Below, piece by piece: positions 10,363 through 52,943 of a DNA stretch of 64,000 nucleotides (its first letter is position 1; every line of letters begins with the position of its first letter). This DNA comes from Verrucomicrobiota bacterium (GTDB lineage: Bacteria; Verrucomicrobiota; Lentisphaeria; JABSQK01; JAJFLO01), in the NCBI GenBank assembly GCA_021772615.1, contig JAJFLQ010000116.1:97744-161743 (forward strand), written 5' to 3'. The notes below the pieces were generated by a model, which was not told where the DNA came from, made no database searches, and saw nothing but the letters and a program-made list of their open reading frames with translations. The translations under genes were made by a program, and so were the position numbers.

Positions 10363-10556
10363 ATCGCATTTCCATATCTTGCGAATAAGGACTTAAATCA
10401 ACGACGTTGGGGCCGCGTCGGCCGCGACGGTGCTGTCAAAGCAGGACGGTGACGTCGCACAAGATACCATCAAGATGCGAGGTTTTGCAGCGATCCGCAG
10501 AGTTAATCTGTGGCGCGCCGTCTGCGACGTCAGACTGGTCCGACCGGTCCGACCGA

Positions 10557-21194: not shown

Positions 21195-21304
21195 ATACCC
21201 CGCATCGGGTGGCGCAAGCACGCTAAAGCGCGAACTTACAACAGCCTGCAGAATTTGTGTGATTGTTCACAGTCACCGCATGCAGGACTGAGTTCGCTGC
21301 CTTT

Positions 21305-23658: not shown

Positions 23659-23693
23659 GCGTGAAACCCACACTGAAGTGTGAACTCCAGCAG
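23659..23693 (+). repeat. Hairpin repeat family, B-type copy (CACAC-TGAA-GTGTG)
   Basis: gcgtgaaacccacactgaagtgtgaactccagcag. Confidence 0.8.
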
Positions 23694-29411: not shown

Positions 29412-29633
29412 GGAGTGCAGGCTTCAGCCTGACAGCGTATATGCGATGGCATTCGCACTTTAGTGAAACGTAGACACCCGATGCCTTTGGCCCCGGATGC
29501 TTTGGTGTGCCGCGGCGTTGCGAGCAAGGCGCGAAACCCACACTAAAGTGTGAACTCCAACTAATAGGACGCAAATCACACAGCTTTATTCTAATCGCAG
29601 AACCGCGGAAAATCAGGCTAAAGCCTGCACTCC
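29412..29633 (+). mobile_element. MITE-like composite repeat: 21-bp terminal inverted repeats flanking a B-type hairpin core
   Basis: The left end is GGAGTGCAGGCTTCAGCCTGA (29412-29432) and the right end is TCAGGCTAAAGCCTGCACTCC (29613-29633), its reverse complement with one mismatch. The internal core cgcgaaacccacactaaagtgtgaactccaac lies at 29530-29562. There is no ORF inside. Confidence 0.55.
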
Positions 29634-32453: not shown

Positions 32454-33565
32454 CAGAGTTTCCGCTCATCATGCGATGCTTCAGGTTCTCCAATGCGATT
32501 CACGATATGACCATCCCGCGATTGCGAATCGATCCGAATTCCGATACAACCAAGAAACACCCGTATCGGCGTGTTCAACATGTCCGTCTCTTTGCGGTCA
32601 CGCAACTCGGCCACGAAATCATCAAGATGCCTGACATCGCCACTTATCCACTCCACGTTCTTGTCGACACGAAAACGATGCCGCTCTTGAAGATCCAGCA
32701 TGTGTACCTTCGTTTGCGACTTCGACGGTGGACTGAACGGAAACAATCGTCTCATCAATCTTGCCAGATCCCGGTGGTGAAAAATATGCAGCTCACATCG
32801 CGGACAACGTGTATAGCGAAAGAATCGCGTTTGCTGCGGCCTTTCCTCGAATCTCTCGTCGCAGCCGGCGCAATAGGCGACACGTTCCCGCCGCGCTGCT
32901 TTTTCCGCCAACGATTGAAGGCTCGGCCGGAATGCAGAATTAAGCAGTCCATACCGTGATACGATCCGCAGAATCACAAGCGTAAGCAGCACGATGTACA
33001 TGAAAAGTCCCCATTCGCCAAACACATTCGCGTTCCAAAGTCCGTGAAGGCAACAGGCGACAATGAATGCCGGCAGCAACCCGTAACCAATGCCCTTTTT
33101 CTTGAACTGATAAAATGCCATCCCCATCGGAGCGCTGAACGCGATATGACCGGGAATTGTCAAAATCGTTCGACTGATCAGCGTCGCCAAAGGCGCCTCG
33201 GCATTCACAACGTACATGACATCCTCGTACGTCGAAAATCCAAGCGCGACGCATGACATGTACACCACGCCGTCGACCAGCTCGTTCATATCATGCCTGA
33301 TCCGCGCGTACACGGCAGCCAGCGCCATAAGCTTCGACAGCTCTTCGACGGGCGCAATGACAAGAAAAGCACCGGCTGTGGTTGCGGGGCCATCAACGAA
33401 GGAATAAAAGACGGTCGCGAAAATGATGGACAACAGCCCGCCAACAAACGTGCAGTACAGCATCAGCGAGATCGGCTCTTTCTCGAACGTATCTTTCTCG
33501 CGGATATAAAAGATATACCCGACGCCGCAGACGAATGATATGACGACGTAGGCCAGTAATTGCAT
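32453..33565 (-). CDS. PrsW-family intramembrane metalloprotease with a C-terminal zinc-ribbon-like extension
   Basis: A multi-TM N-terminus carries the PrsW motifs EELSK (EExxK), FSTYED (FxxxE) and HxxxN (HGLWN). The C-terminal soluble part carries CxxC...CxxC (CAGCDERF...CPRCELH). Confidence 0.7.
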   Translation of the reverse strand: MQLLAYVVISFVCGVGYIFYIREKDTFEKEPISLMLYCTFVGGLLSIIFATVFYSFVDGPATTAGAFLVIAPVEELSKLMALAAVYARIRHDMNELVDGVVYMSCVALGFSTYEDVMYVVNAEAPLATLISRTILTIPGHIAFSAPMGMAFYQFKKKGIGYGLLPAFIVACCLHGLWNANVFGEWGLFMYIVLLTLVILRIVSRYGLLNSAFRPSLQSLAEKAARRERVAYCAGCDERFEERPQQTRFFRYTRCPRCELHIFHHRDLARLMRRLFPFSPPSKSQTKVHMLDLQERHRFRVDKNVEWISGDVRHLDDFVAELRDRKETDMLNTPIRVFLGCIGIRIDSQSRDGHIVNRIGEPEASHDERKL

Positions 33566-33759: not shown

Positions 33760-34080
33760 ATGCATGATTTTAAGGCAATTGAACAAACATTAGAAGACCG
33801 CCTGGTTGCACTGACCAAACGAATGGAAGACATCGACGACAGCCTCGGCGCTACGAGCGATGATGATTTCGCAGAAATGGCTACAGAATCGGAGAATGAC
33901 GAGACCCTTGAAGCCGTAGGCCATGCGACGGAAGACGAAGTCAAGCAAATTGTCCTCGCTCTGGAGCGAGTAAAATCGGGGACCTATGGTAAATGTTCGT
34001 CGTGTGGGCGTGCGATTTCCGCGGAGCGCCTGGAGGCTGTCCCCTATGCGATCCGCTGCATTGACTGTGCCCGCGGGTAG
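33760..34080 (+). CDS. DksA/TraR family C4-type zinc-finger protein
   Basis: A 106-aa product with an acidic coiled-coil N-terminus and a C-terminal CSSCGRAI...CIDC (C4 zinc finger). The size and pattern fit TraR/DksA. Confidence 0.75.
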   Translation: MHDFKAIEQTLEDRLVALTKRMEDIDDSLGATSDDDFAEMATESENDETLEAVGHATEDEVKQIVLALERVKSGTYGKCSSCGRAISAERLEAVPYAIRCIDCARG

Positions 34081-34517
34081 CCCGCATAGCGCTGCGCGTG
34101 GTTGCGCTGGTGGGACGTTCAGTTAGCATATCAATCTTGCGTGTTCGATCAGAGGAAGTAAGGTGTGCCCTCTCATGCGCGACCATAGCACATCGCATGG
34201 GCAATCATACCATGCTTGTTCCAGCAGACGGGCATACTGTTGAACCAGCGATCTTATTCGCTCCTCCTGCGTGGATGCTGTAGAGCCTGCATTTAGCGGC
34301 TCCGAAAATATCAGCCGATCTTTTCCATCTGGAGTACGTTCGTAGTTAATCGCAACGACCGCGGCGCCGCTCAGTAGAGCCAACTCAGTAAATCCAGTCC
34401 TGAAATGTCGAAGTCGACCGAAAAACGGTAGTGCGATTCCCGCCAACACGACATCAAGGCTGCAGTTGATTTCGGTGGGGCGGCTCGTTACTGTATCGGC
34501 AAATCTGAACAAACTGG

Positions 34518-34542
34518 CGGTCTGGTCAGGTAACGACCAGAC
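34518..34542 (+). promoter_or_regulatory. Inverted repeat GGTCTGGTC-N7-GACCAGACC about 40 bp upstream of the pspA-like start
   Basis: 9-bp perfect arms are seen in the sequence. Its position between the likely promoter and the ribosome-binding site of the PspA gene suggests an operator or RNA hairpin. Confidence 0.4.
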
Positions 34543-34581
34543 CGTTCCAAAGCGAGAGGAAAATCCAACCGGGAGGACATT

Positions 34582-35355
34582 ATGGGAATTTTCAGATCGA
34601 TTTACCGATACATCATTACGCTCGGCGGACTGATCGAGAGCGGGATCGACGGCAGTACCGACGACCTGCTGTCCACACCGTCCGGGATCAAGGCCAGCTA
34701 TCAGAAAACCCGCGAAAACTGGACGCAGCAATACAGTGAAGTCCGTGAGGCCGTGGCGCACCTGATGATGGTGCTGGAACAGAAACGCAAACGCGTGAAC
34801 GAACTCAAGGCCGAAGCGGATCAGGTCAAGATCAAACTCAAGGGTGCAGTCGGCAAGTTCAAAGAAACGAACGACACACGTTACCAGCAGGCATTCAACG
34901 AGCTGTACACCCGGGACCAGGCGATCGGGGTAGAACAGGAACAACTCGACAAAGACGTTCAGGAACTCCACGCCAAGGTCGACACCTACAAGGTCAAGCT
35001 GAACGATATGCAGAAGCGCATCACCGACCTCAAGAAGAAGGAAGCTTCGGCGATCGCGGACATTGTCAGCAGCCAGCAGATTATCAAGCTGAACGACCGT
35101 CTCAATCACTTGAGCACGGATCTTGATGACCGCAATCTTCAGGCAATCGAAGAGCGCCGCCAGAACCTCGGCGCCCAAGCGAAACTGTCCGGAGAATTGG
35201 CGGCGGTAGAAGACGCCCCGAACATTGATCAGGAACTGATGGCAGCAGGCATGAAATCGGAAGCAGCCGACATTTTTGCTGCAATGCTAGCCGAAGAGGA
35301 TAAGACGCCGGCGACCGCAACGGAAAAGGCCGCAGCGGAAGGCCGCGAGCTTTAG
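34582..35355 (+). CDS. pspA: PspA/IM30 (Vipp1) family protein, the bacterial ESCRT-III superfamily homolog
   Basis: A canonical MGIF N-terminus with a 257-aa all-helical coiled-coil composition (EQKRKRVNELKAEADQVKIKLK...) and the PspA length range. The antisense ORF at 34123-35178 is rejected as a shadow. Confidence 0.8.
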   Translation: MGIFRSIYRYIITLGGLIESGIDGSTDDLLSTPSGIKASYQKTRENWTQQYSEVREAVAHLMMVLEQKRKRVNELKAEADQVKIKLKGAVGKFKETNDTRYQQAFNELYTRDQAIGVEQEQLDKDVQELHAKVDTYKVKLNDMQKRITDLKKKEASAIADIVSSQQIIKLNDRLNHLSTDLDDRNLQAIEERRQNLGAQAKLSGELAAVEDAPNIDQELMAAGMKSEAADIFAAMLAEEDKTPATATEKAAAEGREL

Positions 35356-35523: not shown

Positions 35524-35576
35524 CAGGCGCTGGAAAGCCATCCCGCGGAACGGGATGAACGCCAACGAAAGGCGTC
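35524..35576 (+). repeat. Hairpin repeat family, A-type copy located between pspA and the AAA ATPase gene
   Basis: caggcgctggaaagccatcccgcggaacgggatgaacgccaacgaaaggcgtc has a perfect 8-bp stem (CATCCCGC/GCGGGATG). Confidence 0.8.
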
Positions 35577-35672
35577 AATACCGTGCCCCTCCGGAGCCGG
35601 CAATCAGATCTCCCGGCGGCAATTTCAAAACCGTTTAATACTGTGCGCTCTGAAAATGGGATATCCTGCCGT

Positions 35673-37451
35673 ATGAAGGTCGTTGCGTCGACGTCCGTTG
35701 CTGATCTGCCGTTCATGCAGCGGTTGCGCGAGGCATATGTCTCGCACCAGTCCAATCAGTTCTTGATAAGCGGCAACGTGAGTGACGTGTTTCGCTGCCC
35801 GTGGTTACGCGGTGGCGACGTCTTTACAAACGCCGGCTACAGTAGCCTGAGCGCGTACCTCACCGACCGCCTGTCTATGACCGACCGGATGGTCATACGC
35901 TACAATATCGCCCGCGGCATTCGCTTTCGTACGGACGCCGACCGCACCCGCGCTCACGCCCTTTACGATTCGATATTCACGGCCAATGAACGCAAGATAG
36001 GTCTTAGCAACTTCGACGAGGTCATCGGCAAGAGCGCGGCCTATGTCTTCCCGTCATTGGTGCTGCTGCGAAAACTGTGTTCACTGGCACAGAACGGTGC
36101 GCCCGGCAAAGGATCGATCGCGATCATTTTCGAGTTCGCGGATTCTATTCTACCGAACGCTCCGGCTGATCGTATGTCGGACGCAGACCGCCGGCGCCTG
36201 ATCTTCTTCAAGGAATGGTTTCGAGATCCGGCGTTCATTGCCTCCAAACACCTCGCCATTCTCTGTGCCGACGCAGCCGGAGCCGTGAATGAATCGATAC
36301 GCTCGCTGCCGCACATGGTCCCCATCAATGTGCCGCTCCCGGACACGTCGGAACGCAGGCGCTTTATCCGCTGGTGCCTGCGCACTCAGTCCGATGTCCG
36401 CCTGAGCGGTACACAGACGGCATTTGCGGAACTCAGCGCCGGAATGACACTGCTCGACATTCAACAGATCATGCGTCTCGCCTGTCACCGGCGCGGCAAA
36501 TTGCGGCGTCAGGATTTCATCGGCTATCTCAACCGCTTGCTGATCAGCAAGATCGGCGATTATGTGGAGATCGTGCGCCCGGACTACGCGCTTGACGCCG
36601 TGGTCGGAAATACCGAACTCAAGCAACATCTGACGCGGCTGAAGACCGTATTGCAGCGCGGCGACGCCGATGCGGCGCCAACCGGCGTACTCATTACGGG
36701 CCCGAACGGCGTCGGCAAGACCTTTATTACCATGGCATGGGCGGGAGAATGCAACCGGATCGTGCTGATTCTGAAGAACCTGCGAAGTTCGTGGTTCGGC
36801 GAGACCGATCAGATATTCGAAAAGATTCGCAACGTGTTGTCGGTATTGGGAAATGTCATGATTATCGTCGACGAGGCCGACACGGTATTTGCCAAGCCCG
36901 GGCATCAAACCCACGCGACAGAACAGCGATTGTTCGGCAATGTCATAAGCATGATGAGTGACCGCCGCAACCGGTCGCGAATACTGTGGGTGCTCATGAC
37001 GGCGCGGCCCGACAATCTTGCGCCGGATTTCAAACGCAGCGGGCGATGCGGCCTGCACCTGCCCGTCTTCGACCCGGAAGGCGCAGATCGCGAGGCGTTC
37101 CTTGACTACGTCCTCAAACGCAGCGGCGTCAGCGCCGATTCCGTGTCGGCGGCAAGGCGCCGCAAGCTGTTAAAAATGTCCGCCGGATACAGCCCTGCCG
37201 ATTTCCGGGAATTAATTGCAGAATTCAAGATGGAGGCTATAGTCCGCAAGTCGCCGGTTACAATGGCTATATGCCTTGATGTGCTGCAGGATTTTATCCC
37301 CGGAGAAATAACAGTTCAGCGCCGCCTGCAGACCCTCCAGGCGGTGATGCACTGTTCCCGCCGATCGCTGTTGCCGGACACATTGCGATCGGCATCAAAA
37401 GTGGAGGTTCAGGAGGAAATTAATACGCTGCAGAGGCAACTGCAGAGATAG
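35673..37451 (+). CDS. Classic-clade AAA ATPase (Vps4/spastin/FtsH-like ATPase module) with a roughly 330-aa N-terminal region of unknown function
   Basis: The start is taken at MKVVAS, because the longer ORF overlaps the repeat at 35524. Motifs seen: Walker A GVLITGPNGVGKTF, Walker B VMIIVDEAD, sensor-1 and SRH-like VLMTARPDNLAPDFKRSGRCGLHL (compare ATNRPDxLDxAxLRPGRFD), and a FGETDQIFEKIR stretch (compare GESEKLVRxLF). The N-terminal region carries degenerate P-loop-like stretches and may be an inactive AAA-like D1. Confidence 0.8.
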   Translation: MKVVASTSVADLPFMQRLREAYVSHQSNQFLISGNVSDVFRCPWLRGGDVFTNAGYSSLSAYLTDRLSMTDRMVIRYNIARGIRFRTDADRTRAHALYDSIFTANERKIGLSNFDEVIGKSAAYVFPSLVLLRKLCSLAQNGAPGKGSIAIIFEFADSILPNAPADRMSDADRRRLIFFKEWFRDPAFIASKHLAILCADAAGAVNESIRSLPHMVPINVPLPDTSERRRFIRWCLRTQSDVRLSGTQTAFAELSAGMTLLDIQQIMRLACHRRGKLRRQDFIGYLNRLLISKIGDYVEIVRPDYALDAVVGNTELKQHLTRLKTVLQRGDADAAPTGVLITGPNGVGKTFITMAWAGECNRIVLILKNLRSSWFGETDQIFEKIRNVLSVLGNVMIIVDEADTVFAKPGHQTHATEQRLFGNVISMMSDRRNRSRILWVLMTARPDNLAPDFKRSGRCGLHLPVFDPEGADREAFLDYVLKRSGVSADSVSAARRRKLLKMSAGYSPADFRELIAEFKMEAIVRKSPVTMAICLDVLQDFIPGEITVQRRLQTLQAVMHCSRRSLLPDTLRSASKVEVQEEINTLQRQLQR

Positions 37452-37495: not shown

Positions 37496-37912
37496 ATGGC
37501 ACAGATACCTAATGATCCAAAATATGTGTATGCTGATATCCTTATCGCGCTGGCACATTGCGACGACCATGTCGATGGGCGCGAACGGGAGTTCCTGAAC
37601 GGTGTGTTCAAGGATATGGACCTCGATTTGAAGATCACAGACCTGATGTGGGAAACGCCGCGAACGCTCGATGTCGTCGAGGCGATCCTTGCAGACGTGA
37701 CAGACGAATCGTTCAAGCGTTGTCTGCTAAAGGACTGTTTTCTCCTCGCATACGCAGACGACATGGTCGTCCCGGAAGAAAACAAGTTCATCCAGCACCT
37801 GTGTGCGATGCTCAATATCGACGACGAGGTCGAGGAACGGATCGAAAAATGGGTCGAGGATGCCCTTGACCATAACGCTGAAGCACAGGAGTTGTTCGGC
37901 CACTGCGCCTGA
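37496..37912 (+). CDS. TerB-like (tellurite-resistance TerB / DjlA N-terminal domain family) protein
   Basis: A 138-aa acidic helical protein with ALAHCDDHVDGREREFL, comparable to the TerB AKADGxxxxEE pattern. It lies 45 bp downstream of the AAA ATPase and is probably cotranscribed. Confidence 0.5.
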   Translation: MAQIPNDPKYVYADILIALAHCDDHVDGREREFLNGVFKDMDLDLKITDLMWETPRTLDVVEAILADVTDESFKRCLLKDCFLLAYADDMVVPEENKFIQHLCAMLNIDDEVEERIEKWVEDALDHNAEAQELFGHCA

Positions 37913-38373: not shown

Positions 38374-39027
38374 ATGATGAACGCGATAATTGAATTCTTT
38401 CAGGTGATTGTGACACCAGGCATGTTGCCGTACACGGTCATGCTGGGGCTGGTGATACTCTACTGGATCACGGTGATAATCGGTGCGATGGATATAGACA
38501 TTATTGATGGCCCTGATTTCGACGTGGACGGTGATATGGACGCTGATGCCGATGCGCCTGATGCCGGTGCGTTCCGTTACATTGTAGGCTTTGTCAATGC
38601 CGACAAAGTCCCGCTCACGATTATACTGAGTTTCCTGATCATCAAGATGTGGATAATCGCATGTTTGTACTACATGTACCTGGCGCCGAACATATCGGTG
38701 CCATTGCCTCCCGTCGTTGTGGGGATTATTTTGTTTGCAGTGGCGTTTTTCACTGCAACATTTCTAACCGGTTACACCACCCGCCCCCTGGCCGACGTGT
38801 TCGAGCACAAGCCGACGCGCGGCCGGCAGCATCTGGTCGGCCGCGAATGCCGTGTAAAAACAACATCGGTGACACACGACTTCGGCCAGGCAGAAGTAAA
38901 GATCGATCAATCGTTTGTCCTCATTTCAGCGCGCTGCAGTGAGGCGACTGAGTTTGAAAAAGGCGATCAAGCTGTAGTCGTGGGCTACGATCAGGAAAAA
39001 GACGTTTACGAAATCCGGAAATTATGA
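38374..39027 (+). CDS. NfeD-like membrane protein (YuaF/YqiJ family) with a C-terminal OB-fold domain
   Basis: The N-terminus has several TM helices and an acidic D-rich loop. The C-terminus GRECRVKTTSVTHDFGQAEVKIDQSFVLISARC...GDQAVVVGYD matches the NfeD beta-barrel. It lies immediately upstream of flotillin, the classic nfeD-floT pairing. Confidence 0.7.
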   Translation: MMNAIIEFFQVIVTPGMLPYTVMLGLVILYWITVIIGAMDIDIIDGPDFDVDGDMDADADAPDAGAFRYIVGFVNADKVPLTIILSFLIIKMWIIACLYYMYLAPNISVPLPPVVVGIILFAVAFFTATFLTGYTTRPLADVFEHKPTRGRQHLVGRECRVKTTSVTHDFGQAEVKIDQSFVLISARCSEATEFEKGDQAVVVGYDQEKDVYEIRKL

Positions 39028-39055: not shown

Positions 39056-41161
39056 ATGGGCAGTTTTATTGTTGGTTCTGCGTTTCTCTTAGCCATTGCA
39101 CTGGTCGTCGGGACAGGAATCCTGTTCCTGGCAAAGAAGATGTACCGTAAAGTTGATCAAGGCGAAGCCTTGATCATCAACAAGAGTGACCGAAAGGTTC
39201 CTGTATCATTCAGTGGTGGCTTGGTCTTTCCGATTTTCCACAAGGCAGAGGTCATGGACATCGCCGTAAAGGCAATGGAGGTCGAACGCAGCGGCAAGAA
39301 CGGGCTGATCTGCGAAGACAACATTCGCGCCGACATCAACGTAACATTCTATGTCCGCGTCAATAAGACCGAAGACGATGTCCTCAAAGTAGCTCAGGCC
39401 GTAGGCTGCGAGCGCGCATCGACTCTGGACACACTGAAAGAGCTGTTTCAGGCCAAGTTCTCGGAAGCGCTCAAGACGGTCGGAAAACAGATGGAGTTCA
39501 TGACGTTGTTCACGGAACGCGAGCAATTCAAGGAACGCATCATACGTGTGATCGGGGAAGACCTCAACGGTTACAAGCTGGAAGACGTCGCCATTGATTA
39601 TCTCGAACAGACACCGCTCGAAAGCCTCGATCCGGACAATATCCTTGACGCACAGGGGATTCGCAAGATCACTGACCTCACGGCAAGGGAGGCGATCTCT
39701 ACCAACGAATTCAGGCGGAACAAGGAGAAGGTAATCACGCAGCAAGACGTCGAGGCCCAGGAGAAAATCCTCGAACTCGAAAAGCAGCAGGCCGATGCGG
39801 AGGCCCGGCAGCGCCGCGAAATTCAAACGATTCAGGCACGCGAACAGGCAGAGATCGATAAGGTAGGTTCCGAAGAAAAGCTAAAGGCCGAACATGCACG
39901 CATTCGCACGGCAGAAGAGATCGCTGTTGCCGAGGAGAATAAACAGCGTCAGGTCGAGATCGCTCTAAAGGCGAAAGAGCGAACAATCGCCGTCGAGACG
40001 GAACGCGTCCAACGCGATCAACAGCTTGAGGCAGTGGAGCGCGAACGTCTCGTTGCCATCAAGGACATCGAGAAGGAAAAGGCGGTCGAGATCGAGAAGA
40101 AGAAGATTCAGGATGTCATTCGGGAACGCGTGATGGTCGAAAAGACCGTAGCGGAAGAACAGGAAAAGATCAAAGACACCGTCGAACTGGCAGGCGCCAA
40201 ACGCGAACAGCAGGTGCAGCTCATTGCGGCGCAGCGCGAGGCCGAAGAAAAACTTGTGACCGAGACCAAGGCTGCGGAGGCGAAGGAACAGGCAGCCAAG
40301 AGTCTGTACGAAGAGGCCGTAACCATGGCCGAGGCCGAACGCGTAAGTGCGGAAAAATACGCACATGCGAAGAAGGTGATGGCCGAGGGCGTGATCGCCG
40401 AGCGTTCCGCTGCCGGCCTCGCCGATGTCAAGGTGCGCGAAGCAGACGCCAACGCGATCGAACTCCACGGAAGAGCGGAAGCCAACGCAATGATAGAGAG
40501 GCACAAGGCCGAAGCGTTTGGTACTGAATCCATTGGCGACGCCAAAGCGAAAGCGGCAACCGCATCGTATACGGCAGAAGCCACAGGCACAGAGATCACC
40601 GGCACCGCCGAGGCCAAGTCCATGGCGGCGAAGTACAAGGCCGAGGCCGACGGTATCGACCAGAAAGCGGCCGCAATGAAGAAGTTCGATGGTGTCGGGC
40701 GGGAGCATGAAGAATTCAAACTCAACCTGGCCAAGGTCGAGCGCGTCGAAATTGCGGCGATAGACGTAAACCGTCAGGTCGCAGAGGCGCAGGCAATGGT
40801 CCTTGGCGAGGCCATGAAGACCGCAAACATCGACATTGTCGGCGGCGACGGCGAATTTCTGAATACGTTCTTCAAGTCGATTAGTCTGGCAAAGTCAATC
40901 GACGGCTTCGTCGACAAGAGCGACCTAACACGCGCCCTGACCAACGGCGACCATTCGAAGATCGGGGAAAAAATCAAGGCACTGATCGGCCGCGAAGGCC
41001 TGTCTCCCGAAGATATCAAGAATTTGACGGTGTCAGCACTGCTCGCGCGACTGGCGTTGAAAGGGAAGGATGACGGCATAAAGGCCGAAGCCGCCGGACT
41101 GCAGGGTGTCGTTAAAAACCTCGGTCTGGACGACGTCCTCGCCCTGTGGCTCGCGAAATAA
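39056..41161 (+). CDS. Flotillin (SPFH/band-7 family, FloT/YuaG-like) with an extended EA-rich coiled-coil
   Basis: An N-terminal TM anchor precedes an SPFH domain (VPVSFSGGLVFPIFHKAEVMDIAVKAMEVE...). A long E/A/K/R-rich flotillin coiled-coil region follows. The length is 701 aa. Confidence 0.85.
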   Translation: MGSFIVGSAFLLAIALVVGTGILFLAKKMYRKVDQGEALIINKSDRKVPVSFSGGLVFPIFHKAEVMDIAVKAMEVERSGKNGLICEDNIRADINVTFYVRVNKTEDDVLKVAQAVGCERASTLDTLKELFQAKFSEALKTVGKQMEFMTLFTEREQFKERIIRVIGEDLNGYKLEDVAIDYLEQTPLESLDPDNILDAQGIRKITDLTAREAISTNEFRRNKEKVITQQDVEAQEKILELEKQQADAEARQRREIQTIQAREQAEIDKVGSEEKLKAEHARIRTAEEIAVAEENKQRQVEIALKAKERTIAVETERVQRDQQLEAVERERLVAIKDIEKEKAVEIEKKKIQDVIRERVMVEKTVAEEQEKIKDTVELAGAKREQQVQLIAAQREAEEKLVTETKAAEAKEQAAKSLYEEAVTMAEAERVSAEKYAHAKKVMAEGVIAERSAAGLADVKVREADANAIELHGRAEANAMIERHKAEAFGTESIGDAKAKAATASYTAEATGTEITGTAEAKSMAAKYKAEADGIDQKAAAMKKFDGVGREHEEFKLNLAKVERVEIAAIDVNRQVAEAQAMVLGEAMKTANIDIVGGDGEFLNTFFKSISLAKSIDGFVDKSDLTRALTNGDHSKIGEKIKALIGREGLSPEDIKNLTVSALLARLALKGKDDGIKAEAAGLQGVVKNLGLDDVLALWLAK

Positions 41162-41314
41162 GTCAACTGCGTCGCCGCAGGCACGATGATATGGCTACGT
41201 TTAACATGGGACCGAGAACATGGTATATTAAGCAAACGATCCGGGCCAGAGGTTCCGCCGTTGAAATTGCCCCCACCGGGACTGATTGCTGCCCCCCAAA
41301 GGCTGCACGGTGGT

Positions 41315-41362
41315 GACGCCCTTCGTTGGCGTTCACAGCTTCAGATGTGGGTTTTCAGCGCC
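41315..41362 (-). repeat. Hairpin repeat family, B-type copy in inverted orientation
   Basis: gacgcccttcgttggcgttcacagcttcagatgtgggttttcagcgcc; its reverse complement gives ...gaaaacccacatctgaagctgtgaacgccaacgaaggg. Confidence 0.75.
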
Positions 41363-41427
41363 GTACCAGAGCGTACCGAACACATCCAAAGCTGTGAACG
41401 CCACACGTAAAAACACATCGGCGGTCT

Positions 41428-41451
41428 GTTGGAGTTCGCGCTTCAGCGTGC
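41428..41451 (-). repeat. Hairpin repeat family copy with a GCGC-TGAA-GCGC stem (compensatory variant), in inverted orientation
   Basis: The reverse complement of gttggagttcgcgcttcagcgtgc is gcacgctgaagcgcgaactccaac. It has the conserved TGAA loop and GAACTCCAAC tail with a different stem. Confidence 0.6.
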
Positions 41452-41493
41452 TTGCGCCTCCCCGTACGAATCGCTACGCGTGTTGTGACGTTG

Positions 41494-41530
41494 CGTGAAA
41501 CCCACACGAAAGTGTGAACAGCTCCAAGGA
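41494..41530 (+). repeat. Hairpin repeat family, B-type copy (CACAC-GAAA-GTGTG)
   Basis: gcgtgaaacccacacgaaagtgtgaacagctccaagg. Confidence 0.75.
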
Positions 41531-41692
41531 AGGCATAAGATATCGTCGATTCGGTCGCCGGCACCTGGATTTAGAAACCCTGAAAATAGTTGAACGGTAC
41601 AACGTACCGACGCAAGTTGTCGCGGCTAAACGTTACACCAGCATTGTCGCAAGCTCGCACTCCAATCACAAGCGTATCTGTACCTCCTTATC

Positions 41693-44600
41693 ATGTCCGA
41701 AGAATCATCACCAACCAATCCCGATGCACCACAAGCCGCTGCCACCGAAGACCAGAGTGGAGAGACGCTGGAAGGCGGCGCCTACGAAGTACTGCGAAAA
41801 CGCCTGAGTACGCTCAATCGTAGCCTCCTGAAGAAACTCGAACAACTCAACGTCCGGCGCAAAGACGTGTTCGGCGGCCAGGAGCTGGCGATCCTGGGCA
41901 ACGCCCGCATCAAGACCGAGAACAACTGCGTCCCCAGGGATATCATCGGCGTCGGCAGCCATCTGATCTTCGGCTACAACGTGTTTATCGGCCTCAAGTC
42001 CGAAACCGCGGTCAGCGACGTGTTCAGCGTGCATCGCTTCGACGGCGTCGATCTCCACCTTCCCGACGCGGACGTGCTCGGCGATCCGAATTTTCTGCGC
42101 GACTTCAGCGAACTGTACAAGTACTATAAGAACGCACGGTTCCTGCAATTCATCAAGTCTCCCGGGCGCCTGCTGATGATCTTTCAGGTCGGCGAAACCG
42201 TCGGCGACCGCAAGATGTTTCGATTCAAGCTCCATCGCGACCACACGCTGGAATATGTCGACGACCGCGGCGATCTCGAATACACGCCGCCGCCGCAACA
42301 TGATTTCGAATGGGAATCGCCGTCGCGTGACGATCACGTGGCGGGCATGTATCCGCACATATCCATCCGGGATATTGTTTTTGTCGAATGCGTCGGCGGC
42401 GATCTCACGATAAAGGTAGAGAACAACACCGAGAGCGGCGACGGCATTTATGAGGAAGCGGTCGAGAATCCGGATCAGACCCTTGACGACGCTTATATTC
42501 GCTACGCACTGGTGGATGGCCTGGTGCTGCTAAAAATCCGGCCCTACCGTGAGAACGTCACGCGCTACCTCGTCTTTAATCCAAAGGACCAGACGGTCAC
42601 CCGTATCGATTCCATTGGCGAGGCCTGTATCAAACTGCCGGAAGGACACGGGCTTATTTTTCCCAAAGGCTACTTCCTGCATGGCGGCGGTGCACGACAA
42701 TTCGACGAAGATGTGGCGGGTATGCTGTACCATGATTGCGTCCGCTCCCCTAATGGCGAGGACTTCCTCTATATTTTTTATCATCGCGAGCACGGCCGTC
42801 ACATCCTGATTCGCTACAATCTCATCTCCAAGGAAATCTCGAATCCCATAATCTGCCATGGTTATTCGCACTACGATGACGGCAAGATGATGATGTTCAC
42901 GGCGGAGAACGACGACCCGCGCCGGGTGCATCCGATGCAGATCTGGCAAACACCGTTCTACGCCGACTCGTTCGAGATCGAACACAAAACAGACTCATTC
43001 CTCACCAAGATCGGCAATCGTGATCTTGTGCGCGGCATCTCCGAAGGCTACGCCATCAGTCGCCTGGCGGGAAGTGAACGGGTAACGCTGGTGATCTACC
43101 AGGACCTGATCCAATCCTGTACCAATATGATCGACGGCTACCATTGGCTTGATCACGACGAGGTGTTCAACCTGCAGTCGCTGGTAAAGGAGATGAAAAC
43201 TGCGGCATCGGCAGCGATCGACGAGTACGAGAAAGTTGTCCGCATCCGCGAGAATACTGCGACACGCATCACCGAAAGTGTGGCATCGGTCAAGCGCTGC
43301 CGGCTGGACTACGCCACGGACCGATTGCTCACTATCGACAACTTCGTTACCGCTCTGAGCGAGGTGCGGACGCTGCGCGGTCATGTGATCTCACTACGCG
43401 AGTTGCGCTATGCCGACCTTGCCCTGATCAATGATCTCGACAAACAGCTTGAGGTGATGAACCAGGACATCTCCGTGGCCTGCGTCGATTTTCTGATGCG
43501 CGATGATGCGCTCGCGCCGTACGAAGTACGTAACCGCGAGATCGAGGCGGGTATCGACAGTATCCACAAGATCGCCGATCTCAAACCACAGGCAGAATCT
43601 CTCGAGACGCTCGCGGCACAACTCGACCTGCTCACCGATGTCATTAACAATCTGAACATCGACGACGCCACCAAGACCACCGAAATCGTCGATAAGATCA
43701 CGGACATTTATGCCGGCGTCAATCGGACGCGCGCCCTGGTTCGCAATGCGCGCACGGAGCTGGGAAAGTCCGAAGCCAAGGCCGAATTTGCAGCGCAATA
43801 CAAGCTGCTGAGCCAGAGTATCAGCAACTACATCGGCATGTGCGACACCACGACAAAATGCGATGAATTCCTCACCAAGGTCATGATTCACATCGAGGAG
43901 CTGGAAGGAAGATTCGCCGATTTCGAAGACTACGTAATGCAGCTGCACGAGAAACGGGAAGAAGCCTATACAGCGTTCTCGAGTCGCAAACAGATCCTTG
44001 ATGACGAGAAGAAGCGCCGGATCGGGTCATTGGCATCATCTGCCAACCGAATCCTGAAAGGCGCGGTCAACCGTGCGGAGACATTCAAGAGCGTCGACGA
44101 GGTCAACGCCTACTTCGCCTCGGACCTCATGGTATCGAAACTACGAGGTATTGTCGAGACATTGCACGACATGGGGGATTCGGTAAAAGCGGATGACCTT
44201 AGCGGCCAGATAAAGACCGCCAAAGATGAAATCGTCCGCCGGTTGCGGGACAAGTTGGAGTTGTTTGATGAAGGCGACAATGTCATTAAACTTGGCGATT
44301 ACCGCTTTACGGTAAACACGCAGCCACTCGAACTCACGACGGTGATGCGGGACGGCGACATGGCATTTCACCTTAACGGAACCGATTTCTACGAGGCGAT
44401 AAACGATCCTGAGTTTCTGGAGACGCGGAACCTGTGGACGCAGGAATTGGTAAGCGAAAATCAAGAGGTATTCCGCGGCGAATTTCTGGCCTACCAGATT
44501 CTAATGGCCGCCGAGAACAACGATAAGAACCTTACTAACGAATCATTGAAGACTCTGGCAGTCAACGACGCGAAGTTGCTCGAATGCGTGCAACATTTTT

Positions 44601-46948
44601 GCGCGGACCGATACGATGAGGGCTACGAAAAAGGCGTTCACGATCACGATGCTGCCCGCATCCTGAAGGCCCTGGTCACGTTGCTACACGAGGCGCAGCT
44701 GCTACGGTACGACTCTGTGTCGCGCGCACATGCGATCCTGTTCTGGTGCTATTCGCCGGACGGACCGGCCAAGGAACGGCTGCGCAGCAAACTGCGCAGC
44801 ATCGGCGCCCTGCCGGCGGTATTCGGCTACACCGATACGTACCCACCCTATGTCGAAGAGATACGTGAGGCCATGGCCGCATTTTTCACCGATCTCGGAC
44901 GCATTCCAGACGCAACGATCCTGACCAATGCATCCGAGTATCTGTACCACGAGCTTCAGGATGCAAGCGATCTTGAGATCACCATCAGTCAGGAGACAAA
45001 GACCCTACGTGAGCGGTTCACAACATATCTCAAGGATAAGACGGTGTACCGCAAATTCACGGACGACATCCGGGCAATGGCGTCCGACCTGAAAAATACA
45101 CTTAGCCTCGTACATGACTGGGTCGCCGCCTACGTGCGCACGTGCGAAAACGATGACGCCGCGTTCCTGATTGACGAGGTCGTTACACTGATTGTTGCCG
45201 GCGACCGTTTCGTGGTCGATACTACGTCGGTCGTGACGTCTGCAACCGTCACGGACCTGCTGGGACGGCACCCGCGTATCGAGGGCAGTTCTATGCCGAT
45301 GCATCTCGACCGTTTCCTGCTCCGCCTCAAGACATATTGCGAGGTGCAGGTACCGCTCTACCGACGGTTTATCCATATGCGGACGGCGTTTATCGAGAAT
45401 CGGCGGGAGTCCATGCGACTGTCCGAATTCCAGCCCCGTGTCATGGGATCCTTTGTACGCAACAAGCTGATCAATGACGTCTACCTGAACCTGGTGGGCG
45501 CGAACTTCGCCAAACAGATGGGCGCTGCCGGCGAAAACAAGCGCACCGATCTCATGGGCCTGTTGTTGTTGATCTCGCCGCCCGGCTATGGCAAGACGAC
45601 CCTCATGGAATACATGGCCAACCGCCTCGGGCTCACGTTCATGAAGATTAACGGGCCCGCGATCGGTCACAAAGTCACGTCGCTCGATCCCGCCGAGGCG
45701 CCCAATGCCACAGCACGCGTCGAGCTGGACAAGCTGAACCTGTCCCTGGAGATGGGCAATAACGTCATGATCTATCTCGACGATATCCAGCACGTGAACC
45801 CCGAATTTCTGCAGAAGTTCATCTCGCTTTGTGACGCCCAACGGAAGATCGAAGGCGTGTATCGCGGGGTCACTCGCACATATGATCTGCGCGGAAAAAA
45901 GGTAGCCGTAGTGATGGCAGGAAATCCTTACACCGAGAGCGGCGATACGTTTCAGATCCCGGACATGCTCAGCAACCGCGCCGACACGTACAACCTCGGC
46001 GATATCTCAACGAGTGCCGCGGATGTATTTGCCATGAGTTTCATAGAAAATGCGATGACCTCAAATCCGGTACTTAACAAGATCAGCAGCCATGGGCATG
46101 ATGACGTCTACCGGTTTCTTGATGCGGTCGACCGGGGTTCCGCCGACGGCATTACATTCGACTACGGATACTCAGTTGCCGAAGTTGACGAGATACTCAA
46201 TGTGCTCCGAAAGCTGTGTAAGGTGCGTGACGTCGTGCTCGAAGTAAACCGGCAGTACATTTACTCGGCGGCGCAGCAGGACGACTACCGCACCGAGCCA
46301 CCTTTCAAACTCCAGGGTTCCTATCGCAACATGAACCGTATGGCAGAGAAGGTTTTCCCGGTCATGACCGATGCGGAAGTCGAGCAAATCATCACCGATC
46401 ATTACTACAACGAGGCCCAGACACTCACAGCCGGTGCAGAAAGCAATATCCTCAAATTCCGTGAGATCACCGGCAAGCTCGCTGACAACGACCTGGCGCG
46501 TTGGAATGAAATCAAGGGCGAATTCAACCGGCGTCAGGCGTTATCCGGCATCGACGACAGCGACGATCTGGGAAAGATTCTGGCGCAGCTTTCCGGATTC
46601 ACCGCAAGTGTCGGAAAGGTTCGCGACGTCCTCGACAAGGGGCTTAATACGGGGCTTAAAAACGTGCTCGAAGCCGTCGCTATGCGGTCGGCGGCTGCGG
46701 CAACGGATCGTCCGGATATCACGCCGCTCATCGACGCGGTGAAGGCGCTTGCGCCAACACCGGAAAGCACGGCAGCTACATCACCAAACGACAACGCAAC
46801 AGCCATAGCCGCTCGACAAACGGAAATACTTGAATCCATCGCCGGGATCCTCGAAGAACTCAAGGACAACAGCGAAACCAACGTACGCCTTCGCGACCTT
46901 ATCGAGCAACTAATGAAAGGCAGCCTTGTCGTCGACCTAAAAGACTGA
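41693..46948 (+). CDS. Giant (1751 aa) uncharacterised protein with a C-terminal MoxR/AAA_5-like AAA+ ATPase module
   Basis: It is a single uninterrupted ORF. Near residue 1270 there is a Walker A LLLISPPGYGKTTLMEY, then a Walker B VMIYLDDIQH, then a MoxR-like sensor KVAVVMAGNPYTE...IPDMLSNRADTYNL. The preceding roughly 1250 aa are largely helical and match no domain I can name. Confidence 0.85.
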   Translation: MSEESSPTNPDAPQAAATEDQSGETLEGGAYEVLRKRLSTLNRSLLKKLEQLNVRRKDVFGGQELAILGNARIKTENNCVPRDIIGVGSHLIFGYNVFIGLKSETAVSDVFSVHRFDGVDLHLPDADVLGDPNFLRDFSELYKYYKNARFLQFIKSPGRLLMIFQVGETVGDRKMFRFKLHRDHTLEYVDDRGDLEYTPPPQHDFEWESPSRDDHVAGMYPHISIRDIVFVECVGGDLTIKVENNTESGDGIYEEAVENPDQTLDDAYIRYALVDGLVLLKIRPYRENVTRYLVFNPKDQTVTRIDSIGEACIKLPEGHGLIFPKGYFLHGGGARQFDEDVAGMLYHDCVRSPNGEDFLYIFYHREHGRHILIRYNLISKEISNPIICHGYSHYDDGKMMMFTAENDDPRRVHPMQIWQTPFYADSFEIEHKTDSFLTKIGNRDLVRGISEGYAISRLAGSERVTLVIYQDLIQSCTNMIDGYHWLDHDEVFNLQSLVKEMKTAASAAIDEYEKVVRIRENTATRITESVASVKRCRLDYATDRLLTIDNFVTALSEVRTLRGHVISLRELRYADLALINDLDKQLEVMNQDISVACVDFLMRDDALAPYEVRNREIEAGIDSIHKIADLKPQAESLETLAAQLDLLTDVINNLNIDDATKTTEIVDKITDIYAGVNRTRALVRNARTELGKSEAKAEFAAQYKLLSQSISNYIGMCDTTTKCDEFLTKVMIHIEELEGRFADFEDYVMQLHEKREEAYTAFSSRKQILDDEKKRRIGSLASSANRILKGAVNRAETFKSVDEVNAYFASDLMVSKLRGIVETLHDMGDSVKADDLSGQIKTAKDEIVRRLRDKLELFDEGDNVIKLGDYRFTVNTQPLELTTVMRDGDMAFHLNGTDFYEAINDPEFLETRNLWTQELVSENQEVFRGEFLAYQILMAAENNDKNLTNESLKTLAVNDAKLLECVQHFCADRYDEGYEKGVHDHDAARILKALVTLLHEAQLLRYDSVSRAHAILFWCYSPDGPAKERLRSKLRSIGALPAVFGYTDTYPPYVEEIREAMAAFFTDLGRIPDATILTNASEYLYHELQDASDLEITISQETKTLRERFTTYLKDKTVYRKFTDDIRAMASDLKNTLSLVHDWVAAYVRTCENDDAAFLIDEVVTLIVAGDRFVVDTTSVVTSATVTDLLGRHPRIEGSSMPMHLDRFLLRLKTYCEVQVPLYRRFIHMRTAFIENRRESMRLSEFQPRVMGSFVRNKLINDVYLNLVGANFAKQMGAAGENKRTDLMGLLLLISPPGYGKTTLMEYMANRLGLTFMKINGPAIGHKVTSLDPAEAPNATARVELDKLNLSLEMGNNVMIYLDDIQHVNPEFLQKFISLCDAQRKIEGVYRGVTRTYDLRGKKVAVVMAGNPYTESGDTFQIPDMLSNRADTYNLGDISTSAADVFAMSFIENAMTSNPVLNKISSHGHDDVYRFLDAVDRGSADGITFDYGYSVAEVDEILNVLRKLCKVRDVVLEVNRQYIYSAAQQDDYRTEPPFKLQGSYRNMNRMAEKVFPVMTDAEVEQIITDHYYNEAQTLTAGAESNILKFREITGKLADNDLARWNEIKGEFNRRQALSGIDDSDDLGKILAQLSGFTASVGKVRDVLDKGLNTGLKNVLEAVAMRSAAAATDRPDITPLIDAVKALAPTPESTAATSPNDNATAIAARQTEILESIAGILEELKDNSETNVRLRDLIEQLMKGSLVVDLKD

Positions 46949-50107: not shown

Positions 50108-51976
50108 ATGTCAATTCGCCCGCTAGGATCCGGAAACGACACGCCGACGAGTGAATCGCCTCAGGTCGACCCGACAACGAGTGCAAAGGCGCCGACAGCC
50201 GATACATTGCCCACGGCCAATGTCCCGCCACCTGCCATCGAGGGCACGGATTCCGTAACACCTGTCGTTAACGAAATATATAAAGCTGTAACCGAACATC
50301 AACAACGACAGCGTCGACGCAGCGAGTGCCGTGACGAGCGATCGCTTACCATTCATGTCGACGGCGTCGTCAGCAAACTTGCGCATCTCTACGAAAAGCT
50401 GCGAAACACGCTCGACTACCAGGATGATCACCTACGGTTCAAGAACGCGATCGAGCGGATCTTGGCGCGCTTGATTGCTGCCGCGAACACACAGCCGCAG
50501 GTCGCGAAGCAGCAAGCCGCGCAGACACTGCCCGACGCCCCGGACGTGGCTCGGACACTGGTCGTCGAACTAATACGGGCAGGTTACCTGGCAAATGGGC
50601 GTTTTCCCGAAGCGAAGTTGACGGAGATCGGCGCCATTATCGAACGGTACGTCACCCTCGAATCGGAGATCGCAAAGGAACCCGCCAACGCCGCGTGCGA
50701 CCTCAATTCACTACGAAAGTGGATCATTAACCTGGCTGCAACCAACCTTTCAGAAAATATCGAAAACGATGACCGCGACGTGTTGGCAGCGCGGCCGATC
50801 TTCGGCACAAAAACCTGGTCGGCCGACACGGGCAGCGTCATCACGGCACATCTACACCGATTGCTCGACAGCAATGTCTATGATCCCGCTGATGATGATG
50901 CATTCACCCGGGAAAAGGAGATCCAGATCTATGTAAGTATCTACCGCAAGCTCTTCAATTACAGCCAGGCAATGCTCGAATTTGTGCTGCTGCGACGACT
51001 TACCTCGTCAGGGTCCGAATTGAGCGATGACGCATGGCACGACATTGCCAAGAACTATTCCAGTTTGAGATCGGAAATAGACCGGCATGTACATCATCCG
51101 TTCGGCCGCCAGTTGCAACCGGTGGCGACACGCTACGCGACATGTTTTTCGATCCTGAAGGACTCATTCGAGGATGATCCGCCGCTAAACGTAAAACGAA
51201 TCAACCGGGAGCCTCCGAAATTCGAGAAATGGATCCACGAAATCTGTGAAAGGCGCTACGCCGACTGCCAGAAGCAATTGTTTGTGAACGCACTAAAATG
51301 CATGACGTACGTGTTCCTCACCAAGATGGTTCTTGTACTGCTCCTTGAGGCGCCATTGACGAATCTGCTGACACCGGACATGCCGGCAAACGTGAAGCTG
51401 TTTTCACTGGGTGTGAACATTATTTTTCCGCCCTTGCTTCTGCTCCTCATGGCGGTGTTCACCGCGGTGCCGGGAACGGCCAACTCGCGGCACATCTTTA
51501 ACGGTATCGCGGAGATCGTTTATGGTCGAAAATCCGATGATCAACTCGTAAAATTGAGCTATCCGAAAGAAGACAAGAACATCGACGTCCTGTTTTTCGG
51601 CGTTTTTGCAATACTATCCATTACATCGTTATCAATAGTGGGGTTGTGTCTCTACCACATTGGCTGCACATGGGTAAGTATCGCTATCTTTATTGTCTTC
51701 ATAACAATTATCAATTTTCTCGGCGTCAATCTGCAGAAAATCGCACGGGAATATCAGGTTGCAACGCCAAAAGCAACCGTCTTTTCCTTCATTGCGGATC
51801 AATTTTATATACCCGTGATCGCGGTGGGAAGACAGATTTCAAAGGTCTTTTCAGATAACAACGTCGTTGTGCTTCTTCTGGACAAGGTTGTCGAGGGCCC
51901 GTACAAGCGGCTTGTAAACCTCGCTGAGCGCTGGTCGGAATACCTGCGCACAAAGCGCGAAGAATCGCTGGACTAA
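50108..51976 (+). CDS. Hypothetical large membrane protein (soluble N-terminal region of about 400 aa, C-terminal multi-TM domain)
   Basis: A 622-aa ORF whose C-terminus carries 4-5 hydrophobic helices (YVFLTKMVLVLLLEAPL..., IIFPPLLLLLMAVFTAV, VLFFGVFAILSITSLSIVGLCLY, VSIAIFIVFITIINFLGV). No family is recognised. Confidence 0.6.
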   Translation: MSIRPLGSGNDTPTSESPQVDPTTSAKAPTADTLPTANVPPPAIEGTDSVTPVVNEIYKAVTEHQQRQRRRSECRDERSLTIHVDGVVSKLAHLYEKLRNTLDYQDDHLRFKNAIERILARLIAAANTQPQVAKQQAAQTLPDAPDVARTLVVELIRAGYLANGRFPEAKLTEIGAIIERYVTLESEIAKEPANAACDLNSLRKWIINLAATNLSENIENDDRDVLAARPIFGTKTWSADTGSVITAHLHRLLDSNVYDPADDDAFTREKEIQIYVSIYRKLFNYSQAMLEFVLLRRLTSSGSELSDDAWHDIAKNYSSLRSEIDRHVHHPFGRQLQPVATRYATCFSILKDSFEDDPPLNVKRINREPPKFEKWIHEICERRYADCQKQLFVNALKCMTYVFLTKMVLVLLLEAPLTNLLTPDMPANVKLFSLGVNIIFPPLLLLLMAVFTAVPGTANSRHIFNGIAEIVYGRKSDDQLVKLSYPKEDKNIDVLFFGVFAILSITSLSIVGLCLYHIGCTWVSIAIFIVFITIINFLGVNLQKIAREYQVATPKATVFSFIADQFYIPVIAVGRQISKVFSDNNVVVLLLDKVVEGPYKRLVNLAERWSEYLRTKREESLD

Positions 51977-51980
51977 CGGT

Positions 51981-52943
51981 ATGCGCAAAGCAATACGAAT
52001 AAAGAAGATCATGCTAATCCCGGTGCTTCTGGCGGTCGCGACAGTGACACTATCCTGTTATTATCAGATTCGCCGGACGAACACGGACCGGCTGCTGGAT
52101 GAACACACACTTGCCGGCTCCGCGGATGTCGTGCGCGGCCTGATAAGCGCCCGCGCCGAGGTGGACGCACGTGATAGCGACGGACGCACGCCGCTCATCG
52201 TTGCGGCCAGCGTAGGTGCCGCCGATGGTACGGCGCTGCTATTACGTTCCGGCGTCGATGTCAATGCGGTATCCGACGCTGGCGCGGCTCTGCATCAGGC
52301 GGCGATGAACAATCACGGGATCATTGCCAAAAATCTCATCGACGCCGGCGCCGACGTGAACCTCGACTCGGAGGTCGGCACACCATTGCAAACGGCCGTG
52401 ATGAACGACCATCTCGCCGTCGCGCGTCTTCTGATTGAGGCGGGTGCGGAAACGTTTACGGACAATCGCCACGGAACGCCGCTCCATCTCGCAGCGATCA
52501 ATGGCAATGCCACGATCGCAAGGCTTCTCATCGACAGCGGCGCCAACGTGGACGCTCGCATGGAAAATGCCTACACGCCACTGATGCAGGCAGCGCGTCA
52601 CGGAGCAGTTGATGTCGCGGACGTGTTGGTACGGAGCGGGGCAGACATCTTTCTGCGCGACGAATTTGGTTGGACTGCGCTGCACTGGACCGCATTCAGC
52701 GGCGCGGCAGACAGTGTTACGCTGCTGCTCGGTGAGGGCGCAATTGTCGATGTGACAAACAATGTCGGGAGCACGCCGCTGCACTATGCATCGGAACGCA
52801 ATCAGGAGGGCGCAGCGCGCGTGTTGTTGACCGAAGGAGCCGACCCCATGATACGGAATCGTGCCGGGAAATCCCCTGCAAACCTCGCTGCTTCGTCCGC
52901 CATGCGGGCGCTGATGTCTGATGCAGGCAACACCGCAAAATGA
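51981..52943 (+). CDS. Ankyrin-repeat protein with N-terminal signal/TM segment
   Basis: At least 7 tandem 33-aa ANK repeats (GxTPLhhAAxxGHxxhhxhLLxxGAD pattern; for example DGRTPLIVAASVGAADGTALLLRSGVDVN, HGTPLHLAAINGNATIARLLIDSGANVD). The N-terminus MLIPVLLAVATVTLSC is hydrophobic. Confidence 0.8.
   Translation: MRKAIRIKKIMLIPVLLAVATVTLSCYYQIRRTNTDRLLDEHTLAGSADVVRGLISARAEVDARDSDGRTPLIVAASVGAADGTALLLRSGVDVNAVSDAGAALHQAAMNNHGIIAKNLIDAGADVNLDSEVGTPLQTAVMNDHLAVARLLIEAGAETFTDNRHGTPLHLAAINGNATIARLLIDSGANVDARMENAYTPLMQAARHGAVDVADVLVRSGADIFLRDEFGWTALHWTAFSGAADSVTLLLGEGAIVDVTNNVGSTPLHYASERNQEGAARVLLTEGADPMIRNRAGKSPANLAASSAMRALMSDAGNTAK

Follow-up and report, generated by a model that had tools for sequence, protein, structure and literature searches.

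The window analysed here, a stretch of 64,000 nucleotides (nt) from a Verrucomicrobiota bacterium to which all positions refer, carries a module of three consecutive plus-strand genes encoding a YqiJ/NfeD-like multi-pass membrane protein, a flotillin-like scaffold protein and a giant cytosolic AAA+ ATPase of the DUF3686/DUF7902/AAA family, the last being the subject of this report. The ATPase gene is one uninterrupted open reading frame (ORF; 41693-46948, plus strand) translating into 1751 amino acids, as described in an earlier note on this DNA, and the three motifs singled out there were all located in the translation (SPPGYGKTT at residues 1295-1303, IYLDDIQH at 1360-1367 and MLSNRAD at 1425-1431). 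The same note had seen no recognisable domain in the first roughly 1250 residues; this did not hold, as Pfam placed DUF3686 (PF12458) at residues 45-484 (E = 6.9e-184, 612 bits, profile positions 2-448 of 448) and DUF7902 (PF25472) at residues 605-688 (E = 3e-24). The P-loop region matched the AAA (E = 1.5e-6) and AAA_5 (E = 5.9e-6) families about equally and was the only P-loop region found by Pfam, propeller and helical domains making up the rest of the protein in structural models. No transmembrane segment was predicted in the ATPase.

Homologues were sought over 5.8 billion protein clusters, with 8000 candidates scored and 120 homologues listed. At least 6832 of the scored candidates were homologous clusters (at 90% identity), distributed over at least 10 phyla. 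All 120 listed homologues had the DUF3686, DUF7902 and AAA regions in common; they were mostly 1640-1890 amino acids long (a few were shorter and partial) and aligned over 93-100% of the query with a full-length identity of 45-66%. Among the matches listed, identity was highest (up to 66%) to Lentisphaeria-type metagenome-assembled genomes, while homologues from Planctomycetota, Verrucomicrobiota, Myxococcota, Acidobacteriota and Sumerlaeota were ~45-50% identical. When the N-terminal 500 residues were used as query, 745 representatives (at 50% identity) were retrieved, 259 of them at E<=1e-30, and among the matches listed the aligned part sat at or near the N-terminus of the targets, the long ones measuring 1600-1930 amino acids. 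Homologues were also noted in Proteus mirabilis, Vibrio campbellii, Pseudomonas fluorescens SBW25 (plasmid pQBR103), Streptomyces and Gimesia. Where homologues carried a name it was 'DNA repair ATPase', 'AAA family ATPase' or 'MoxR-like ATPase'; the NCBI family label is 'DNA repair ATPase', and the Pfam text for DUF3686 reads 'ATPase involved in DNA repair'. The 1751-residue protein is a member of the widespread, named and experimentally uncharacterised DUF3686 family, with which it shares the three Pfam regions in the same order, a length within 1600-1930 amino acids, the SPPGYGKTT and YLDDIQH motifs and a yqiJ-flotillin pair upstream. It differs from the family in being at most 66% identical to any database protein among the matches listed, in a spacer to the flotillin gene expanded to 531 nt by repeats resembling repetitive extragenic palindromic (REP) elements, and in having PspA-like, 622-residue AAA and TerB genes upstream where Bacteroidota have CesT/Tir-PspA.

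The domain layout was derived from two AlphaFold models built on 40-sequence alignments (mean predicted local distance difference test score, pLDDT, of 84 and 78). A disordered stretch (residues 1-27) is followed by a helix (30-60) and a beta-propeller of ~27 strands (66-419), helix and propeller together forming the DUF3686 core (41780-42949, plus strand); the propeller carries many invariant D, E, H, N and W residues in the alignment. Compared with the Protein Data Bank (PDB) by Foldseek, the propeller part matched the beta-propeller proteins prolyl oligopeptidase, PON1, Ski8, Nup155 and IFT-A (E~1e-5). Long helices and coiled coil, with single helices of 46-58 residues, occupy residues 436-857 (42998-44263, plus strand) and enclose DUF7902 (43505-43756). 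The middle region (residues 864-1240; 44282-45412, plus strand), consisting of a small beta unit (864-902), a helical domain of ~240 residues (928-1170) and strands with a long linker helix (1174-1240), was the least conserved part before the ATPase domain (28-47% identity to homologues) and gave no match in a Pfam scan. A protocoatomer-like coat protein was considered after Foldseek matches to Nup155, IFT-A and clathrin and was rejected as an architectural echo only: TM-scores were ~0.13, the helices form long coiled coils and no solenoid, and the family extends beyond the PVC bacteria.

The AAA+ module (residues 1291-1527; 45563-46273, plus strand) comprises a single alpha/beta core (1291-1434) and a helical lid reaching to ~1527, with Walker A K1301, Walker B D1363-D1364, sensor-1 N1411, R1429 and, directly before the sensor-1 strand, a beta-hairpin (1385-1398). 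T1302, T1303, D1363, D1364, N1411 and R1429 were invariant in all 40 aligned sequences and K1301 occupies an invariant column. The Walker B motif (YLDDIQH) departs from the canonical hhhhDE, having Asp-Asp with D1364 in 40 of 40 sequences. The AAA+ core was 76-87% identical to homologues of other phyla, far above the rest of the protein. It is followed by a conserved helical domain (1528-1650; 46274-46642, plus strand) containing YRTEPPFKLQGSYRNMNR, that is modelled as helical with good confidence (identity to homologues 57-71% over residues 1501-1600), and by a poorly conserved tail rich in Ala, Thr and Ser that ends in a helix (1651-1751; 46643-46945, plus strand; identity 14-20%, pLDDT ~45-55). 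Searched by sequence against the PDB, both the single protein and a 40-sequence profile matched only the P-loop (p97, RuvB; E~1e-3). The solved folds nearest to the ATPase model were the MoxR ATPases CbbQ and NorQ, at an identity of only 13-16% and with ClpB and Lon scoring almost equally. The ATPase is a soluble single-module AAA+ protein whose nucleotide-binding residues are intact and invariant.

The first gene of the module encodes the YqiJ/NfeD-like protein of 217 amino acids (38374-39027, plus strand), with hydrophobic segments, a match to YqiJ_N (Pfam, E = 7.8e-7) and a weak NfeD match in its C-terminal part. The product of the second gene (39056-41161, plus strand; 701 amino acids) has a single N-terminal transmembrane helix (~residues 8-26), an SPFH/Band_7 domain and a long coiled coil, by which it can be recognised as flotillin-like, in agreement with the placement of the ATPase gene downstream of flotillin in the earlier note. 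Band_7 was detected at residues 32-180 with the first 240 residues as query (E = 2e-12), and the E/A/K-rich coiled coil was read from the translation at residues ~230-530 (~300 residues). The C-terminal 201 residues, scanned separately, gave no Pfam match, and the full-length protein had no Pfam match even when E values up to 10 were admitted, probably because its coiled-coil composition triggers the compositional-bias filter of HMMER; automated annotation may for this reason miss such flotillins. A sequence search of the PDB gave no match to the flotillin-like protein. Its Hymenobacter copy is annotated 'hypothetical protein'.

Gene order was examined at 80 loci, one genome per species, from Lentisphaerota, Planctomycetota, Verrucomicrobiota, Bacteroidota, Spirochaetota, Fibrobacterota, Actinomycetota (Nocardiopsis), Gamma- and Alphaproteobacteria, Myxococcota and others, the synteny count being limited to 58 loci whose upstream DNA extended over 3.5 kb or more. 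A flotillin homologue lay directly upstream of the ATPase gene on the same strand at 54 of the 58 loci, its N-terminal/SPFH part being 46-75% identical to that of the window flotillin, and a YqiJ-like gene preceded the flotillin gene at 42 of the 58 by tblastn (at 50 loci by ORF clustering of all 80). The clustering, which was independent of the window, returned only three families present in more than 7 loci, namely the ATPase, the flotillin (median 704 amino acids, median gap to the ATPase gene ~90 nt) and the YqiJ-like protein. Conversely, when the flotillin served as seed, 43 metagenome loci were obtained; 36 of them extended 600 nt or more downstream, and in 31 of these the ATPase gene came directly after the flotillin gene. 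Conservation at this level in both directions argues that the adjacency of flotillin and ATPase is not incidental, and the functional link proposed in the earlier note, which had suggested checking the co-occurrence of orthologs, gained support from it. The linkage of the ATPase with a flotillin subfamily and a YqiJ/NfeD-like protein is tight, reciprocal and cross-phylum.

The novelty implied by the earlier note was not upheld, as the same operon was described computationally by Ravi, Anantharaman, Aravind, Gennaro and colleagues (mSystems 2024; PMC11237479), whose Table S3 lists for Dokdonia the order YqiJ-YuaF, Band-7+coiled-coil+flotillin and beta-propeller+coiled-coil+AAA-ATPase. Shorter operons, consisting of flotillin, YqiJ and sometimes the ATPase, were found there to be more widespread (PMC11237479). 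The flotillin association is thus already published, and the window contributes one further family member. Genes for CesT_Tir_1 (E = 9e-54) and PspA (E = 5e-43) preceded the module in 7 Bacteroidota loci, which ties it to envelope-stress machinery, as in the published description (PMC11237479). A Hymenobacter record reads Tir chaperone-PspA-DUF1449-hypothetical-'DNA repair ATPase', and a record of plasmid pQBR103 reads PspA...glutathionylspermidine synthase-hypothetical-SPFH-'DNA repair ATPase'. On this Pseudomonas fluorescens plasmid (locus L124, record 85112-97641) the yqiJ-like, SPFH and ATPase genes stand directly after a yjf-like set made up of PspA, a rhomboid protease, DUF2491, DUF350, DUF1190 and a glutathionylspermidine synthase-like gene, an arrangement that joins two PspA operon classes kept separate by Ravi et al. 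(PMC11237479).

The flotillin and ATPase genes of the window are separated by a spacer of 531 nt (41162-41692) with short repeats that recur in other gaps. The earlier note had reported three hairpin-repeat copies upstream of the ATPase gene, two of them inverted, and these were recovered. The inverted pair of REP-like units (41327-41403) has arms of 23 nt each (41327-41349 and 41381-41403) that are 91% complementary, and the region around it (41318-41412) is predicted to fold into a strong hairpin (-44.4 kcal/mol, z = -6.7), with no T-run after the hairpin and no terminator-like site in a scan of the spacer. The third copy, GTGAAACCCACACGAAAGTGTGAAC (41493-41519, plus strand), is 92-96% identical to 6127-6153, 23659-23685 and 29533-29555; single repeat units, this one included, folded no better than shuffled sequence. 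Across the window, the repeat is dispersed as units of ~30 nt (approximately GCGTGAAACCCACACTGAAGTGTGAACTCCA) with a 5-bp stem CACAC/GTGTG, in both orientations and always between long ORFs, the copies being located at 6127-6153, 10272-10300 (related), 23659-23685, 29533-29555, 41321-41360, 41381-41403 and 41493-41519. Further pieces of the spacer recur as well (41433-41458 = 21211-21236; 41305-41335 = 35556-35586), and an Rfam scan found no family anywhere in the window. The suggestion that the repeats are particular to the ATPase gene had to be given up in view of the copies at 6127, 10272, 23659 and 29533 and the fragments at 21211 and 35556. A role as gene-specific operators was likewise ruled out, since copies in other gaps between long ORFs mark the units as REP-like dispersed repeats.

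Spacers in related loci have a median length of ~90 nt, those of the close relatives L002 and L083 being as short as ~30 nt, and none showed similarity to the window spacer. In the closest metagenome relatives the spacer is 623 nt long and holds a small inserted ORF (L082, ~9990-10612; also L081); the ORF of L082 is flanked by inverted TAATGAG/CTCATTA repeat runs, and the insert is unrelated to the window spacer. The short spacers of L002 and L083, together with the different insert in L082, indicate that the long spacer is a secondary, lineage-specific expansion, and the flotillin-ATPase junction seems to be a recurrent insertion site. More speculatively, the REP-like insertion could lower ATPase expression relative to flotillin or uncouple the two.

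Directly upstream of yqiJ, and outside the conserved core, the window has genes for a PspA-like protein (34582-35355, plus strand; Pfam PspA_IM30, E = 1.5e-5, below the gathering score), an AAA ATPase of 622 amino acids with the domain in its C-terminal half (35583-37451, plus strand; Pfam AAA, E = 3.6e-16; best matches Cdc48, CdvC and PAN) and a TerB protein (37496-37912, plus strand; Pfam, E = 3.3e-7). The order of the three is kept in L002 and L083, and the pair of PspA-like and AAA genes is also present in L050. The plus-strand PspA-like ORF, conserved in L002, L019 and L050, was preferred as the real gene over a minus-strand ORF (34123-35178), which was rejected. Ravi et al. described a PspA-associated protein with two AAA domains, the N-terminal copy being inactive (PMC11237479), and the product of 35583-37451 may be this protein; together with the PspA-like protein it could form a bacterial pair of the ESCRT-III/ATPase type. 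Further upstream lie genes for a LemA+TPR protein (31419-32453, minus strand), a PrsW-family intramembrane protease (32453-33565, minus strand) and a DksA-like zinc-finger protein (33760-34080, plus strand), and with these and the PspA-type neighbours the region of ~31.4-47 kb looks like an envelope- or membrane-stress gene cluster. Downstream of the module, an ORF of 622 amino acids without Pfam or NCBIfam match (50108-51976) is followed after 4 nt by a gene for a 320-residue protein with seven ankyrin repeats (51981-52943), a kind of protein seldom encountered in bacteria. This pair (50108-52943) showed no conservation beside the ATPase at other loci.

By a small preponderance of probability, in our judgement, the ATPase remodels the flotillin scaffold using ATP. 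The YqiJ-like and flotillin-like SPFH proteins would assemble into an oligomeric scaffold at the cytoplasmic side of the membrane; homologous SPFH/NfeD pairs are known to form such scaffolds. The bulk of the window flotillin is here assumed to be cytoplasmic, given its single N-terminal transmembrane helix and the analogy to bacterial flotillins. The ATPase would oligomerise, probably as a hexamer, through its extremely conserved C-terminal AAA+ module, and its arm of ~1250 residues (beta-propeller and long helices) could act as a built-in adaptor that docks on the flotillin assembly or on the proteins held by it, in place of the separate VWA adaptors of CbbQ and NorQ. ATP binding and hydrolysis would then remodel the assembly by opening, disassembly or client hand-over, in a manner resembling MoxR with its adaptor, Vps4 on ESCRT-III, or FtsH on HflK/C-enclosed substrates. 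In most AAA+ proteins the Walker B motif has Asp-Glu; the invariant Asp-Asp of this family hints at hydrolysis that is slow or gated, unlike that of a fast processive motor. It is put forward tentatively, as a possibility on the doubtful side, that the DUF3686 ATPase serves bacterial flotillin cages as Vps4 serves ESCRT-III, as a machine dedicated to their ATP-driven disassembly or remodelling.

MoxR proteins (CbbQ, NorQ, RavA) are ~270-500 amino acids long, work with a separate VWA-domain partner and have DE in Walker B, whereas the window ATPase carries a fused propeller/helical arm of 1250 residues and DD; no VWA partner was conserved in the 80-locus ORF clustering and none was present among the window neighbours scanned. 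HflK/C-FtsH offers a general precedent for an SPFH scaffold genetically coupled to an AAA+ ATPase, but FtsH is a membrane-anchored AAA protease of the classical clade in a periplasm-facing cage, and the window ATPase is soluble, protease-free and of another AAA+ clade. With Vps4-ESCRT-III and PspF-PspA the likeness lies in an ATPase that controls the assembly of a membrane-bound polymeric scaffold, and the module often clusters with PspA genes; the window ATPase has no MIT domain and belongs neither to the classical clade nor to the sigma-54 activators, and its presumed target is an SPFH protein, not one of ESCRT-III fold. The midasin- or dynein-like nature suggested in the earlier note is not borne out, since midasin/Rea1 and dynein concatenate six AAA+ modules per chain and the window ATPase has one, so that it would need to oligomerise.

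Several observations weigh against a role in flotillin remodelling. No flotillin neighbour was present at four loci (L006, L028, L039 and L060), which implies that the ATPase can occur in other contexts. At three of these, all from Lentisphaeria, an ATPase paralogue ~50% identical to the window protein directly follows a gene for a Kdo/WaaP-like kinase of 279 amino acids (L006 8999-9838, L028 9060-9899, L060 3036-3887; Pfam Kdo, E = 6.6e-7), and this Lentisphaeria subfamily without flotillin and yqiJ may represent a second, flotillin-independent context. At the DNA level no homologue of the ATPase was found in 5,426 complete E. coli genomes, and flotillin operons without it are reported to be more widespread (PMC11237479); both facts show that flotillin in general does not need the ATPase to function. 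No aromatic pore-loop motif was evident in the sequence between beta2 and alpha2, leaving substrate threading by the ATPase uncertain, and a literature search found no experimental work on any family member, only the computational mention of 2024.

The lack of a canonical aromatic pore loop at that position counts equally against a reading that is unlikely without being negligible, in which the ATPase extracts, unfolds or assembles client membrane proteins within a flotillin microdomain and the flotillin is only their platform. Such a role would parallel FtsH in HflK/C, or the m-AAA protease with prohibitin, minus the protease domain. SPFH proteins are repeatedly paired with client-acting AAA+ machines, as is well established, and the conserved propeller with its many invariant polar residues looks like a specific binding surface; HflK/C-FtsH is treated in PMC13086221. 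The synteny evidence bears on clients as much as on scaffold remodelling, but the Pfam scan revealed no protease or other effector domain in the ATPase, and the 80-locus clustering no conserved client gene nearby. That clustering also bears on the database name. A DNA repair ATPase standing beside flotillin by chance would agree with the Pfam description of DUF3686, the NCBI names of homologues and weak P-loop matches to RuvB (E~1e-4, far below family cut-offs), yet the 80 loci contain no conserved DNA-repair neighbours, the sole conserved partners being two membrane proteins, and neither Pfam nor NCBIfam detected a DNA-binding, nuclease or SMC/ABC-type domain. We regard this as scarcely credible; the name may go back to spurious matches of coiled coils to SbcC-type COGs.

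An anti-phage or conflict system, with a membrane SPFH sensor and the ATPase as effector, is hardly more attractive and very improbable. Defence systems often hold giant ATPases with propeller or coiled-coil sensor domains, and a few copies of the ATPase do reside on megaplasmids. However, the ATPase occurs in only 13 of 72,556 plasmid records, most of which are chromids or chromosomes under a wrong label, the neighbours are neither defence nor mobile genes, and an AAA+ core of such identity across phyla is unlike fast-evolving defence genes. The earlier note had named a known defence ATPase of BREX or DISARM type as the finding that would speak against it; no known defence ATPase was recognised, the best PADLOC match being IetA (E = 9.5e-4, over 29 residues of the P-loop), and all PADLOC matches were limited to the P-loop at E~1e-3 or weaker. 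An ATPase gene forming its own transcription unit, with a regulated promoter in the 531-nt spacer and functionally uncoupled from flotillin, is also improbable, though less so than a defence system. The spacer lies in the upper length tail of 57 loci, contains two sigma-70-like matches where 0.3 were expected and includes the strong hairpin at 41318-41412, but its repeats also occur elsewhere between genes, L002 and L083 as close relatives make do with ~30 nt, the scan detected no terminator-like site after the flotillin gene, and order and strand agree with the conserved operon.

Bacterial flotillins are treated as passive scaffolds, and their assembly and turnover are poorly understood; we know of no energy-consuming flotillin partner that has been shown experimentally. 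The module considered here spans Planctomycetota, Verrucomicrobiota, Lentisphaerota, Bacteroidota, Actinomycetota, Pseudomonadota and other phyla. If remodelling of flotillin assemblies or of their clients is indeed the task of the ATPase, direct tests of flotillin dynamics would become possible, and the name 'DNA repair ATPase', for which this analysis found no support, would be corrected. Should it prove, as tentatively suggested, to be a dedicated disassembly or remodelling machine for flotillin cages, a motor would be driving the active turnover of flotillin microdomains in at least 10 bacterial phyla.

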